Made by a program: the position numbers and the translations under genes. Shown piece after piece: positions 9,607-15,191 of a stretch of DNA of 40,161 nt (within the stretch, counting starts at the first letter, position 1; every line of letters starts with the position of its first letter). The stretch covers positions 1 through 40,161 of the forward strand of contig ONXO01000035.1 in the NCBI GenBank assembly GCA_900321795.1, given 5' to 3'. Source of the DNA: an uncultured Eubacteriales bacterium. Its GTDB lineage: Bacteria > Bacillota_I > Bacilli_A > RF39 > UBA660. The notes below the pieces were generated by a model. It was not told the DNA's origin, searched no databases, and saw only the letters and a program-made list of their open reading frames with translations.

Positions 9607-9809
9607 AAACCCTTATATTTACTGGGCTCACGAGCATTATTTACCATGACATTTCTTATATTTCTTACCACTGCCACATGGATGCGATATTTCAAGCTTC
9701 TGAGACTATAAAACTCTTTAAAACCCTTATAAAACCTCACAAATTGGCTTTTGAGAGCTTTTGAGAGCGTCCAAGAACTCTACCAAAGCGTATGTAAAAA
9801 CGTATGTAG
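9601..9809 (-). repeat. Cassette-boundary module, copy A (divergent, outer)
   Basis: Parts in coordinate order: an interrupted hairpin (9601-9634); the SEC-C tail [14 protein letters not shown]-stop (9637-9681); the core CCACTGCCACATGG (9668-9681); a unique arm with the tandem CTTTTGAGAG x2; then CGTATGTAAAAACGTATGTAG (9789-9809). Confidence 0.85.
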
Positions 9810-9825
9810 AATTTAATTTTTAATA

Positions 9826-10308
9826 CTATAAGTTTAATAGTTCTTTTTTCTTTTGATCAAATTCTTCTTGGCTAATTGCACCCATGTCAAGTAATTCTTT
9901 TAACTCTTTAACTTGCTCGATTGGAGTCTTAACATTTTGAGCAATCGTATTTCCACTATTTTGGTTGGCATTAAATTCTTCAATATAATTTTTAATTTCC
10001 TCAGCATTAGCATTAGCATTTTTTGGATCAAGATTAAATGTAACTGTATTCTCATCTTTTAACGCATCTCTTAAACCATTTTTGCTTTCTCTACTACCAG
10101 ATAATACAAATTGAATATATCCAGCAGTCATACCGCATTTTTTCAATTGCACAGCTGATATTTGATTCAATAAAATAGTTTTTTCACCTTTCAATCCAAA
10201 ATTCATAAAAGATCTAACACCTTTTCTAATAATTGATAGTTTGTTACCATCAATTATTACTATTGTATTTCCTGTACCTAAATTTTTAAATAAATATTCT
10301 TTTTTCAT
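9826..10308 (-). CDS. bPH (YokE/DUF4429-like) domain protein with a C-terminal SHOCT domain
   Basis: 160 aa. The C-terminus VKELKELLDMGAISQEEFDQKKKELL is a typical SHOCT motif. The N-terminal ~100 aa look like a bacterial PH-like domain. Confidence 0.7.
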   Translation of the reverse strand: MKKEYLFKNLGTGNTIVIIDGNKLSIIRKGVRSFMNFGLKGEKTILLNQISAVQLKKCGMTAGYIQFVLSGSRESKNGLRDALKDENTVTFNLDPKNANANAEEIKNYIEEFNANQNSGNTIAQNVKTPIEQVKELKELLDMGAISQEEFDQKKKELLNL

Positions 10309-10368
10309 AACATCAACTCCTATATTAATTATACCATATTTTTCCTATTTTTCATATGCCAACAATAA

Positions 10369-10941
10369 TTACATGAATTCATGTATTATCTCATCAAATT
10401 CACGTATATCATTTCTGATTTTTTCAAGATTATACTCTTTATCACGTTTAAAATATAAATCATTATTTTTATCAATTGGATACCTAAAGCGATATGAATC
10501 ATTATCAATTAAAATAAATTTTTTTACAATCCCATCTAAAGTTTCTACAAAATAATATGAATCTTCACCATAGTAATCCGACTCCTCTTCCATTAATTTT
10601 TGCTTAAGCCCAGGCCAAATTTCACTAAGTCTATGATTACTAAGTAAATTAACTTTCATATCATAGTATTTTTTATTATTAATGTCAAAATATACGTACA
10701 TAGCTTTTATTATTAACTCTAAATAATGGCGGAATAAAAACATGACCGGATATATGTTATACTCTTCCTCAAGTTTTATGCTTTCTATTCTAAATCCTTC
10801 CATCAAAGATGACAACTGCGAATATCTGTTATCATCTAGCAATACATCAGCCAAAATCATGCCCGAATTATAATATCCTGCAGCATAAGTAAAAAGTATT
10901 TCTTTATTACCATTATGTGAAATGTGAATCATTTTTGTCAT
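10369..10941 (-). CDS. Hypothetical 190-aa helical protein (cassette gene, no confident family)
   Basis: Clean ORF with a GGTGG Shine-Dalgarno. Conserved-looking patches are FRHYLELIIKA, SNHRLSEIW and SYRFRYP. Confidence 0.6.
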   Translation of the reverse strand: MTKMIHISHNGNKEILFTYAAGYYNSGMILADVLLDDNRYSQLSSLMEGFRIESIKLEEEYNIYPVMFLFRHYLELIIKAMYVYFDINNKKYYDMKVNLLSNHRLSEIWPGLKQKLMEEESDYYGEDSYYFVETLDGIVKKFILIDNDSYRFRYPIDKNNDLYFKRDKEYNLEKIRNDIREFDEIIHEFM

Positions 10942-11062
10942 AAAACCACCTATTAATATTATATCATAAACTTTTATAGTCCTTGTCTTGTACTGTAGGG
11001 ACAGTGATCATTTTCTTCGTAAAACCTTATAAATAAAGGCTTTATTAGGCTCTAAATAATGG

Positions 11063-11347
11063 CTACATACGTTTTACATACGTATATAAAACGTATGTAG
11101 AGGCACCTTTTGAAGAAATATTACAACTTTTTAGAAAAAGAAAAAGCCCGGAAATTCTTATATTTCCGGGCTTTGTGAACTATTTACCACAACACTGTTT
11201 ATATTTTTTACCACTGCCACATGGTGTAGAAACTGCAATTTTTCTGCAATTTTTACAAAATTTTTGTTGAAATTACAAAGAACTTGTAAAATCTACAACT
11301 TATTTTTGCTTCGGATGCATTACAAAACGTATGCAAAAACGTATCTA
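11063..11347 (-). repeat. Cassette-boundary module, copy B (full length, inner)
   Basis: Parts in coordinate order: the inverted pair CTACATACGTTTT...AAAACGTATGTAG (11063-11100); ATTACAAC; the terminator; the SEC-C remnant [30 protein letters not shown]-stop (11180-11272, no start codon); the core at 11211-11224; phased TGCAA/TACAA boxes; then ACGTATGCAAAAACGTATCTA (11327-11347). Confidence 0.9.
11133..11171 (-). terminator. Strong intrinsic terminator inside module B
   Basis: Perfect 10-bp stem GCCCGGAAAT/ATTTCCGGGC (11146-11155 and 11162-11171), followed on the minus strand by TTTTTCTTTTTCT. Confidence 0.8.
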
Positions 11348-12833: not shown

Positions 12834-12844
12834 ATTAAAATCTT

Positions 12845-13459
12845 TTATTTAATATCAAATTCTGCATAAATAGTATATGCTTGTGAATCTGGACTCTTTG
12901 ATTTTCTTAAGTCACTTTTAACTAATCTGTATGTTCCACTTTTTAATTCGCCATATCCTAAAGACCAATCAACAATAAACTCTTTCTCTTCATGTGCTTT
13001 CAAAGAATAAACTATTGAATTCCATGTTAATGGTTCTCCTGTCAATGTATCGATTTCTTTCTATGCTTGATTTTCAAACTTTTCAATAGTATATGTTGGA
13101 CCATAAGCATATTCTTCATCTGTAGTGTTTTTTATTATAAATGACGCTCCTTTTGTTGTTCTTGTATCTTCTTTAATTTCTATTAAAACACTACCAACAT
13201 TTTTTTGCGCTGGACTTTCATCATGTTTTAATCTTTCATCAGCATTTATATTTCCACCAACTCTAATTCCTAAAATTTTAAGTTCCCATCCATCTTCATA
13301 ACCTGTAAATGAAATTTCAGTTGGTGTATGAACTATAGTATACTTATACAAAATAGCTTTATATTCTGTAACACCATTTTTCCAATGAGTAGGTATTGGT
13401 ATTAACATTAAAACAAAAATCACAATTGCAACAATAATTAATATTTTTTTCTTTTTCAT
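12845..13459 (-). pseudogene. Secreted or membrane-anchored Ig-like beta-sandwich protein interrupted by one in-frame TAG
   Basis: The 132-aa and 66-aa ORFs share one frame (13459-13045 = 414 nt) and are split only by TAG at 13061-13063 (...FENQA-stop-KEIDTLTGEPLTW...). Joined, they would give about 204 aa. Confidence 0.65.
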
Positions 13460-13495
13460 ACAAGCACCTCTATAATCATTATATCATATATGTGA

Positions 13496-14971
13496 TTATT
13501 CAAACAAGTCGAAGCCTCTCTTTGTAACTTTAAATACTTCACCTTTATAATTTGTACCTCTAATATAATCATTATTAACTAATAATTCCATAGAATACTC
13601 CATATTTGCTTCCTCTTTGGCATTAGCTGGTGTAAAAGTTTTAGTACCACATTGGATAGTTAGTCCTATTATTGTTTTTGATTTAATAATTATTCCATCA
13701 CCATTTACTGCATTTTGTAGCATATATAAAGCGAGTTCATTCAATCCATTTTCCATAATTGTATTATTATATTTTATAATACTTTTATTTTTTGATTCAT
13801 CAATATTAGCCATTTCTTTCACATCTTCAATTATTTCTGAAACGTTATCATATCTATTACTATGATTTCTATCGACACATTTTTTAACAATATTTGAAAT
13901 TGCATTATTAGTTAATTGTAAGCTTTGTTTCCCAGTAAAAATATAAAACAAAATAATACCTATAACATATATTTCATTTTTAATATTATAATTTTTAAAA
14001 TCAACTAATGTATCGTCAATTATTGTTCCTTTTATTTCAGAACCAGTTGATGTTAGATCAGAATTTTTTTCTTTAATTAGGCCAAAATCAGAAACCTTAA
14101 TAGAAATTAAATCATCATCGTATTGCTTGATTAAAATATTATTGAAACTTATATCTCTATGCAATATCTCTTTAGAATGTAAATATTGAATTGCTTTTAA
14201 GAATTGTAATGCAATACTTTTTCTTTTATTAAAATTTAATTTTTCTTTATTTCCATTATATAATTCATAATACTTTTTAAGTGTAAAATCACAATATTCC
14301 ATAACATATGCATCATCATCTTCTAAATATTTATATGCTTTTAGAAGATATGGATTATTTAACTTATTTAAAAAATCAAATTCCTTTTTAAATCTTCCAA
14401 GCTCTTTATCGGTAAATTCCTTCTTTAATTTCTTATATGCATAAAATTCGTTATAAAACTCATCTTTATACCTATAAACATCCGCATATGCACCGCTACC
14501 AATTATTTTAGTTTTAAAATTTGTTTTATATGTATTTGAATTTACCGTTATTTCATTATTCATATTGAAAATTGTATCATATTTTATTAGATTAAATCTT
14601 TTATAATCATTTGGAATTGTACTACCACCAGATGATGATAAAAAACTATCACAATATTTTAAAAACGCTTCATAATCTGTATTAACCGAAAAAGCCAAAT
14701 TGGTATTCTTTAACATTAGTTTTAATTCGTTAATTGTTTCAATTAAAAAAATAAGGCTTCTGCTTTCATCAGCATTAAAATGATGATTAGTTTTACTCTT
14801 ATCATTCATAAAGCCAATTAAACTATTTAAATTTTGATGTAAAAATGAAAAAATATTTTTAACTCTTTTATCATAGTTATTATATAAATCTAAATATAAT
14901 TTTGAAAAGTTAAAATTTGCAAGTTCATCGCTTAATATATTATTTAGTGCTAAATCGATATTTTCTACCAT
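13496..14971 (-). CDS. Hanks-type Ser/Thr protein kinase domain flanked by unknown N-terminal (~150 aa) and C-terminal (~100 aa) domains
   Basis: Catalytic motifs present: GSGAYADV (G-loop), AYKKL (Lys), HRDISFNN and DFG. The likely start is ATG at 14971 (GGTGG upstream). No TM segment or signal peptide. Confidence 0.8.
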   Translation of the reverse strand: MVENIDLALNNILSDELANFNFSKLYLDLYNNYDKRVKNIFSFLHQNLNSLIGFMNDKSKTNHHFNADESRSLIFLIETINELKLMLKNTNLAFSVNTDYEAFLKYCDSFLSSSGGSTIPNDYKRFNLIKYDTIFNMNNEITVNSNTYKTNFKTKIIGSGAYADVYRYKDEFYNEFYAYKKLKKEFTDKELGRFKKEFDFLNKLNNPYLLKAYKYLEDDDAYVMEYCDFTLKKYYELYNGNKEKLNFNKRKSIALQFLKAIQYLHSKEILHRDISFNNILIKQYDDDLISIKVSDFGLIKEKNSDLTSTGSEIKGTIIDDTLVDFKNYNIKNEIYVIGIILFYIFTGKQSLQLTNNAISNIVKKCVDRNHSNRYDNVSEIIEDVKEMANIDESKNKSIIKYNNTIMENGLNELALYMLQNAVNGDGIIIKSKTIIGLTIQCGTKTFTPANAKEEANMEYSMELLVNNDYIRGTNYKGEVFKVTKRGFDLFE

Positions 14972-15040
14972 GTAACCACCCAATTAATATTATATCATAA
15001 TAAACCTAAATAACCTTGAATTTGCCTCAAATCCACATAA

Positions 15041-15191
15041 AAAAACGTATGTAAAACGTATGTAGAGGCACTTTTTTGAAAAAAATTACAACTTTTTAGG
15101 AAAAGAAAAAGCCTCGCAATCCCTTTATTTACGGGGCTTTACGAGACTATTTACCATGACAGTTTTTATACTTCAATCCGCTGCCACATGG
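15041..15191 (-). repeat. Cassette-boundary module, copy D (outer, truncated exactly at the core)
   Basis: Parts in coordinate order: ACGTATGTAAAACGTATGTAG (15045-15065); ATTACAAC; hairpin plus T-run; the SEC-C tail PCGSGLKYKNCHGK-stop (15147-15191); and the core CCGCTGCCACATGG (15178-15191). It is about 94% identical to copy C up to the core and unrelated beyond it. Confidence 0.9.

Follow-up and report, generated by a model that had tools for sequence, protein, structure and literature searches.

Tyrosine integrases of the lambda family, such as those of lambda, Tn916 and ICESt1, recognize arm-type sites in attP, attL and attR. A different kind of array is formed by the composite islands of staphylococcal cassette chromosome (SCC) and pseudo-SCC elements, which lie at the rlmH (orfX) 3' end in staphylococci; their cassettes are tens of kb long and their serine recombinases work without arm sites. 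Cis-mobilizable elements (CIMEs) have lost their integration and transfer genes and keep attL and attR (PMC5704250); tandem accretion of such elements is known from ICESt1 and its CIME in Streptococcus thermophilus (PMC5704250) and from the ssrA islands of Dehalococcoides (PMC3146451). Here we describe an array of three gene cassettes, E1 to E3, in a 40,161-nucleotide stretch of DNA (the window; contig ONXO01000035.1 of assembly GCA_900321795.1, an uncultured Eubacteriales bacterium), in which pairs of the 9-mer ACGTATGTA flank every cassette. These pairs are probably arm-type accessory sites of a site-specific tyrosine integrase that crosses over in a core of SEC-C codons, which would make the array a stack of three integrase-less mini-elements. 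By analogy, the putative mechanism is that of att sites of the lambda/Tn916 type, complete with arm-type sites, and the stacking corresponds to tandem accretion of CIMEs.

ACGTATGTA is the plus-strand reading of the motif and TACATACGT its reading on the minus strand, which codes for all of the cassette genes. Searching both strands of the window for the 9-mer with at most one mismatch gave 15 sites, 13 of which lie within 9788-15064. The plus-strand copies start at 9788, 9800, 11080, 11091, 11327, 11339, 12575, 12814, 12826, 15045 and 15056, and inverted copies at 11064 and 11075, which confirms the motif and its positions as given in a preliminary description of this DNA. That description also held the motif to be absent from the other 34 kb; this is right for pairs, of which none lies outside the array, but two isolated one-mismatch matches occur at 4404 and 18155. 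The exact pair pattern was observed twice, against 0.00 expected from shuffles. Start to start, the two 9-mers are 11 bp apart at 15045/15056 and 11064/11075 and 12 bp apart in the remaining pairs, which replaces the earlier figure of 13-14 bp, and a putative dimer binding each pair is a reasonable reading of this spacing. Three pairs are degenerate, with one or two mismatches (GCGTATGTA at 9788, ACGTATGCA/ACGTATCTA at 11327/11339 and ACGTATTTA at 12826). As had been noticed before, pairs follow cassette stop codons (by 11 bp at stop 12845, 39 bp at stop 11386 and 17 bp at stop 9826) and precede cassette starts (by ~62-74 bp in E3, 98 bp in E2 and 122 bp in E1), distances that agree with the map of open reading frames (ORFs), and direct copies stand on both flanks of E3 and of E2. 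On one flank of E1 the pair is inverted, giving a 38-bp palindrome at 11063-11100.

The pairs, present at the cassette flanks as first described, are not free-standing. Repeat finding and alignment identified a module of ~270 bp in four copies (U1, 9590-9830; U2, 11040-11365; U3, 12560-12850; U4, 15030-15215), of which the pairs are a part. Read along the minus strand, the module consists of a TACATACGT pair of 12-bp period, an arm of ~115 bp, the SEC-C core, a terminator hairpin, the sequence aaaaagttgtaattttt..gtgcc and a second site, CTACATACGT-tt-TACATACGT, of 11-bp period. U3 has just one copy at the second site, and in U2 this site abuts the inverted pair of the palindrome. The core is 45 bp long and comprises the final 14 codons and the stop of an ORF with a SEC-C motif, that is, a C-terminal SEC-C zinc motif ending.C.GK; the first 14 bp of this stretch have five matches in the window (four and a weak one) where 0.37 are expected. 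Direct repeats are found inside the arms (TTGTAAT/TTGTAG in U2 and U3, GCTCTCAAAAG in U1). An Rfam scan of 7000-17000 by E-value returned no family at gathering score and only sub-threshold chance matches, and thus no known RNA or attC family. The four core copies, in direct orientation, bound three elements stacked in tandem, E3 (15146-12712), E2 (12666-11225) and E1 (11179-9682). With P and P' denoting the arms upstream and downstream of a core, the recombination features of the array are as follows.

15147-15191, minus strand: core copy U4, SEC-C end PCGSGLKYKNCHGK*; 86% identity with the stretch of secA end and P' arm in locus L026
15066-15146, minus strand: P' arm spacer of E3, a G+C-rich hairpin with a T-run (read by eye), then aaaaagttgtaattttt..gtgcc
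15045-15065, minus strand: P' arm pair of E3, CTACATACGT-tt-TACATACGT, 11-bp period, +127 from the core start
12814-12834, minus strand: P arm pair of E3, aAATACGT-ttt-TACATACGT, 12-bp period, about -123 from the core
12712-12813, minus strand: spacer of the E3 P arm, which has direct repeats of its own (TTGTAAT/TTGTAAA/TTGTAG)
12667-12711, minus strand: core copy U3, PCGSGLKYKNCHGK*, no upstream ORF
12575-12584, minus strand: P' arm half-site of E2, a single CTACATACGT, preceded by a hairpin and a ttgtaat stretch (12585-12666)
11327-11347, minus strand: P arm pair of E2, degenerate, TAGATACGT-ttt-TGCATACGT
11180-11224, minus strand: core copy U2, then a terminator-like hairpin (11143-11174)
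11063-11100, minus strand: P' arm site of E1, direct half-site 11091-11099 abutting the inverted pair 11064-11083, together the 38-bp palindrome
10950-11062, minus strand: type B extension of the E1 P' arm, an inverted hairpin and the TATGATATAAT box (TGATATAAT at 10958-10966)
9788-9809, minus strand: P arm pair of E1, CTACATACGT-ttt-TACATACGC
9682-9787, minus strand: P arm spacer of E1, of the type with two GCTCTCAAAAG copies; 85-95% identical to the P arms of L047, L051, L085, L002 and L011
9593-9681, minus strand: core copy U1 (9637-9681) and hairpin; end of the array, running into a truncated protease-like ORF (9412-9606)

The E3 P' arm spacer region is 94% identical to 12587-12711 (repeat D2). 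In the window, homology to modules linked to secA begins exactly at CCATGTGG (15191), beside an SDR gene (15271-16029); the left flank of U4 is the spacer after this gene and not secA.

We scanned one genome per species with the pair pattern and obtained 107 loci. In ~27 species (25-29% G+C) the pair has a SEC-C fragment at a distance of 115-135 bp, and the two arrangements of the window recur; these carriers are low-GC Firmicutes known from metagenome-assembled genomes (MAGs) labelled Clostridium sp., Bacilli, Erysipelotrichaceae or "Tenericutes". The first SEC-C copy is the true end of a secA gene of 830-890 aa in loci L005, L026, L030, L041, L051, L079 and L096, and further cassettes with SEC-C fragments follow it, so that the core is identical to its chromosomal target. 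After the last core copy in L047, L085 and L030 the sequences diverge right past the stop codon. As the sequence common to the chromosome and the elements, the secA end would therefore act as an attachment core that is duplicated at each junction. The elements found downstream of secA in related genomes are 1.5-10 kb long and bounded by a second core, and several start with an integrase gene. Conservation of the arms has sharp limits. Conserved P arm sequence begins ~10 bp outside the pair, and that of type-A P' arms stops ~17 bp past it. From the core through the TATGATATAAT box, ten species (nine and that of the window) share the type B P' arm, and homology then ends within a few bases, at the ribosome-binding site of unrelated cargo genes; this arm would serve as a portable promoter. 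The secA contigs of L113, L115, L121, L124, L159, L161 and L162 end ~20-300 bp past the secA stop, probably because repeated modules break short-read assembly, and arrays at this position are therefore likely to be under-represented in MAGs.

In order to assign the pairs to elements, the best tandem pair on the P side and on the P' side of every core was extracted. The P' motif of one core was the same as the P motif of the next core, across one cargo, in 26 of 36 cases, whereas the two motifs around a single core, within a module, matched in 8 of 40, with random pairing giving 24% (Fisher p=7e-6). A stricter measure of matching gave 19/36 across the cargo versus 3/40 within the module. The pair motif thus belongs to the element. 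In L022, for instance, an integrase gene is followed by a TTGTTTGCA pair, a core, a TACATACGT P' site, a GNAT cargo gene, a TACATACGT P pair and the next core; that is, a TTGTTTGCA-armed integrase element adjoins a mini-element with TACATACGT on both arms. Arrays of single genomes mix pair motifs, four or five of them in L106. The pairs lie at about -125 and +125 from the core, on both arms. Because they match across the cargo and not across the module, the module is best read as a junction made of a left P arm, a shared core and a right P' arm, which would place the crossover in the core and make the pairs element-specific accessory sites.

Further evidence comes from related tyrosine integrases with Arm-DNA-bind_4, Phage_int_SAM_3 and Phage_integrase domains, of which the best 80 relatives in the genome collection were analysed (~438 more lie outside this set). 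In 72 of the 80, a SEC-C core precedes the KRG motif of the integrase by 230-323 nt (median 297), and in 54 of the 61 loci that allowed the test it is the end of an ORF that stays open over 200 codons or more. Of the 82 cores in the integrase set, 56 have exact tandem 9-mers (period 10-13 bp) between +80 and +135, or 57 if an outlier at +195 is included, as against 3 of 410 control windows; for cores anchored at secA the counts were 24/78 and 5/390, the other 54 secA ends carrying no pair. Integrases with identical N-termini carry identical pair motifs, such as TGTTCGCAAT, TGTTTGTAA, TTGTTTGCA, TTTGTCTACATTT, TTTGTGTGCA, TTGTTGCCAA and TTTGACATC; the N-terminus VNVRKRGKVFQYQFEIAPVDG, for example, goes with TGTTCGCAAT, VTIQKRGNFYQYKFEIAK with TTGTTTGCA, VRVRKRGKSYEYQFEIAPIDG with TTTGTCTACATTT and VSIMKRGNFFQYRFEIASQGG with TTTGTGTGCA. 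Such tracking of the N-terminus is the signature of arm-type sites, here putative ones. Just upstream of the integrase start, the P' arms of L125 (12443-12740), L112 (12446-12720) and L300 (4037-4330, reverse complement) combine a direct pair with inverted copies and resemble the palindrome 11063-11100 of the window. These direct and inverted copies could autoregulate the integrase in the three loci.

Among the roles considered in the preliminary description, that of a recombinase accessory site is supported by the position of the pairs on both sides of a shared core and by their co-variation with the arm-binding domain of the integrase. Under this proposal the recombination core would be the final ~45 bp of secA, the codons of the SEC-C zinc motif, and strand exchange would occur within this shared core in the manner of lambda or Tn916. 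An element would then consist of a P' arm with a terminator and a pair ~125 bp past the core, a cargo of one or two genes with a promoter, and a P arm whose pair precedes the next core by ~125 bp. The N-terminal domain of the integrase would bridge arm and core by way of the pairs, which would give each element its recognition class. E1 to E3 resemble CIMEs because none of them encodes an integrase, and the enzyme would be supplied in trans, unless the elements are now fixed. What we infer is the binding of a protein to TACATACGT, its identity as an integrase and a continued mobility of the window elements.

A number of observations weigh against this proposal. No integrase with TACATACGT or TAGATAC-type arms was present in any collection searched. 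Two integrases compared by phmmer with all ORFs of the motif loci (+/-4 kb, ~27 species) revealed none of the TACATACGT class; all 25 matches in viral contigs were without a SEC-C core; phage and plasmid records matched the SEC-C core alone, in unrelated genes; the best 80 integrase relatives all have TGT-type arms; the pattern TACATACGT-N150-180-KRG codons had 0 matches in metagenomes; and a general metagenome scan gave three arrays, each without an integrase. Within the window, Pfam detected no recombinase among the products of E1 to E3 and no ORF matched the integrase queries. The array stands away from secA, the 841-aa ORF at 34637-37162 being a valyl-tRNA synthetase, and the same arrangement was seen in every metagenome contig recovered with the SDR, E1a or E3a proteins (at most six per query), so that presence/absence junctions of cassettes were not found among them. 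The degeneracy of three window pairs points the same way. The loci of the pair scan were chosen via the motif itself, and its co-variation with the integrase could in part be due to joint inheritance of whole elements. Lastly, cargo junctions lie ~10-20 bp outside the pairs, in type B exactly after the conserved promoter, and such precise boundaries are left unexplained by recombination in the core alone.

Several recombinase genes near such arrays bear on the search for a cognate enzyme. An integrase remnant in L015 was tried as a TACATACGT-class candidate and rejected, since comparison with L300 gives its arms as TGTCCACA. Integrase pseudogenes are present in the related arrays L136, L142, L145 and L171, none of them with TACATACGT arms. 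The TATCTACA of mini-elements is one base off the TGTCTACA of integrase-bearing elements, which makes a cognate integrase within the family plausible. In L055, a XerD-like tyrosine recombinase (Phage_int_SAM_4 and Phage_integrase) and a zinc-ribbon protein, encoded at 400-1248 and in an adjoining 380-aa ORF, lie on the opposite strand within one TACATACGT-class cassette; this looks like an inserted unit resembling an insertion sequence and not the cassette's own integrase.

The pairs might instead be the crossover sites themselves, as the preliminary description had also considered, with cassettes exchanged between TACATACGT pairs and the SEC-C piece carried as a passenger in a long attC-like site. 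Unrelated cargo does stand behind identical arms, and the breaks in conservation described above (at the P pair, TGAATTC directly followed by TACATACGT) put the cargo boundaries near the pairs; the 38-bp palindrome at a P' site may also recall the core of a two-armed recombinase. However, a module moving as a unit predicts matching pairs around a core, the opposite of the ownership counts. The secA target shares the core and not the pair, and unoccupied secA ends lack pairs. Integrase genes keep a fixed offset from the core, which is constant while the pair motifs are highly diverse. As the shared sequence is the 45-bp SEC-C core, with secA homology starting from CCATGTGG, we give this explanation very little credit. 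Less improbable, though still unlikely, is the shared repressor operator of the earlier description, or more broadly an operator of a transcription factor controlling the cassette promoters or read-through from upstream. P' copies do lie upstream of the TGnTATAAT boxes that precede every cassette gene, a direct spacing of 11-12 bp suits a dimeric or tandem binder, and HTH_3 regulators are common as cargo of related arrays (5 of 84 ORFs). Against this, half of the copies come after stop codons, and the distance from P' pair to box ranges from 48 to ~100 bp (about 48, 60 and 97 bp), upstream of the -35 position. No regulator is encoded by the window cassettes, the mixture of motifs in the array of one genome is unlike a shared host regulator, and in relatives the motif tracks the integrase N-terminus.

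A further explanation keeps the att-site framework and departs from the proposal solely in what binds the pairs or in whether they are active today: the pairs could bind an architectural or excision factor other than the integrase (an Xis-like protein or recombination directionality factor, or a host protein), or be inert relics in a fixed array. The failure to find a cognate integrase, the displacement of an apparently invariant array from secA and the degeneracy of some copies all speak for it. Exact 9-mers are nevertheless kept on both arms across many species with differing cargo, at the position and period of the pairs linked to integrases, and we consider this explanation doubtful, if worth bearing in mind. 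Hardly any weight attaches to the idea that the pairs are a transposon's terminal inverted repeats or a low-complexity repeat due to chance. Inverted copies do bracket E1 (9788-9809 and 11063-11083), but E2 and E3 are bracketed by direct copies and neither a transposase nor a target duplication is present, which refutes the transposon; chance is opposed by the shuffles and by the recurrence of the composite in the ~27 species. Two host sites were also set aside, namely dif/Xer and the DnaA box (TTGTCCACA versus TTATCCACA), given that the motifs are diverse within a genome, which disfavours a host Xer site, and track the integrase. Xer/dif-dependent modules (IMEX, pdif) have a 28-bp dif-like site that matches the host dif, with 11-bp arms on either side of a 6-bp spacer; the palindrome 11063-11100 shares only TTTACATA with what we take to be the XerD arm of the Firmicutes dif site.

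Compared with lambda-type att sites, the array has the same short direct repeats, unlike the core, about one helical turn apart and on both arms at a fixed distance of 100-150 bp from it; the repeats are element-specific, and in related elements an integrase is encoded whose N-terminus is an arm-DNA-binding domain (Pfam PF14657), present and co-varying for other motif classes. It differs in that the window elements and all TACATACGT-class elements seen are without an integrase; arm binding is putative here. A further difference is the use of the SEC-C coding end of secA as core. Literature searches found no published description of integration at this end or of such cassette arrays. As in CIMEs, integration genes are absent while arms and cores (attL and attR) remain on both sides, and elements are stacked at the 3' end of one gene, whose end is copied at each junction. 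Unlike CIMEs, E1 to E3 are much smaller (1.2-2.5 kb, one or two genes), lack remnants of transfer genes and draw promoter and terminator from highly standardised arms. Such mini-elements also far outnumber integrase-bearing relatives of the same motif class, none of which was found. As to an origin by decay of an ICE or IME and mobilisation in cis by an accreted functional element, integrase pseudogenes occur in arrays of other motif classes, and the window has no functional partner. The array also resembles integrons, with their IntI, attI and attC, in its tandem cassettes of one or two genes, separated by a structured recombination module and free of recombinase genes, and in a cargo rich in GNAT acetyltransferases, methyltransferases, NUDIX proteins and small regulators. 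It is not an integron: no IntI adjoins it, with no integrase by Pfam marks among the genes called up to 10 kb from the SDR gene in both directions, the module is ~270 bp long with direct instead of inverted end repeats and a 45-bp coding core in place of attC sites, which are imperfect inverted repeats with R''/R' boxes, and each cassette has its own promoter-like TGnTATAAT box, integron cassettes being mostly promoterless. SCC islands likewise form arrays of cassettes, some without a recombinase, and every cassette has at its boundaries a repeat that includes a conserved housekeeping gene's end; they differ by their serine recombinases, the lack of arm sites and their size.

The cargo of the three elements is the following.

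12845-14997, minus strand: cargo of E3, a Ser/Thr kinase (13496-14983) and a Big_14 protein (13061-13459 plus 12845-13045); TGATATAAT boxes at 14989-14997 and 13478-13486
11386-12515, minus strand: cargo of E2, a 363-aa membrane-anchored repeat protein; TGTTATAAT box at 12507-12515
9826-10941, minus strand: cargo of E1, a 190-aa protein (no Pfam match) and a 160-aa DUF4429 and SHOCT protein; TGGTATAAT box at 10328-10336

A generic sigma-70 promoter scan did not rise above shuffles in this AT-rich DNA, and a search for TGnTATAAT was used instead; it placed a box ahead of every cassette gene, on the minus strand, at 14989, 13478, 12507, 10958 and 10328. By its kinase domain, the E3 kinase matches models of anti-phage defence kinases (PD-T4-6, E=8e-31; mad6, E=2e-34; Stk2, E=1e-24) and may constitute a single-gene defence cassette. 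A homologue in L145 follows secA directly; the element that carries it has TGTCCACA arms and a broken integrase gene. An in-frame stop (13061-13063) divides the E3 gene for the Big_14 protein into parts of 132 and 66 aa, the 132-aa call recurring in metagenome contigs; the homologue in L051 (4436-5032) is intact, encodes 198 aa and forms a single-gene cassette. The E2 gene contains an 18-nt tandem repeat (11963-12214) of at least 10 copies that encodes NTNTGS/NTNTES; its product has 363 aa in the window and 369 aa in the metagenome contig L108, so that the repeat copy number varies. Among the 84 cargo ORFs of related arrays are 8 GNATs and the five HTH_3 regulators mentioned above, as well as methyltransferases, NUDIX, NERD and RhuM proteins. 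Beyond the array, the window carries an HTH_3-VanZ gene (7227-8330, minus strand) without arm or core remnants around it; its counterpart in L049 (2292-3392), 71% identical in nucleotides, is a cassette between two SEC-C cores. The 64-aa ORF at 9412-9606 (minus strand), which has a GNSGG motif and no Pfam match, is truncated at the end of the last hairpin of the array and looks like a C-terminal fragment of a trypsin-like serine protease.

Arm-type sites and tandem accretion are textbook biology, and the motif is thereby explained with fair confidence. What appears to be undescribed is a family of elements that uses the SEC-C codons of secA as attachment core and is widespread in uncultured gut Firmicutes, often as integrase-less mini-elements of 1-2.5 kb with standardised arms and a cargo that includes GNATs, regulators and a defence-type kinase. 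Module repeats probably cause MAG assemblies to stop just past secA, which would leave this pool of accessory genes under-sampled. We tentatively suggest, as a possibility that goes well beyond the reading of the pairs, that uncultured gut Firmicutes of low G+C content (their MAGs bear the labels Bacilli, Tenericutes/Mollicutes and Clostridia) may maintain downstream of secA an integron-like cassette system built from lambda-type att sites. Its arms of ~270 bp would supply promoter, terminator and arm sites, integrases acting in trans would capture, stack and exchange the cassettes, and the pair motifs (TACATACGT, TAGATACG, TAGATAAG and others) would define compatibility groups. If this is true, the placement of cargo right after a conserved promoter would reflect a dedicated and so far undescribed step of cargo exchange. 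If the mini-elements are mobilised in trans, they would provide Gram-positive gut bacteria with a gene-cassette exchange analogous to that of integrons.

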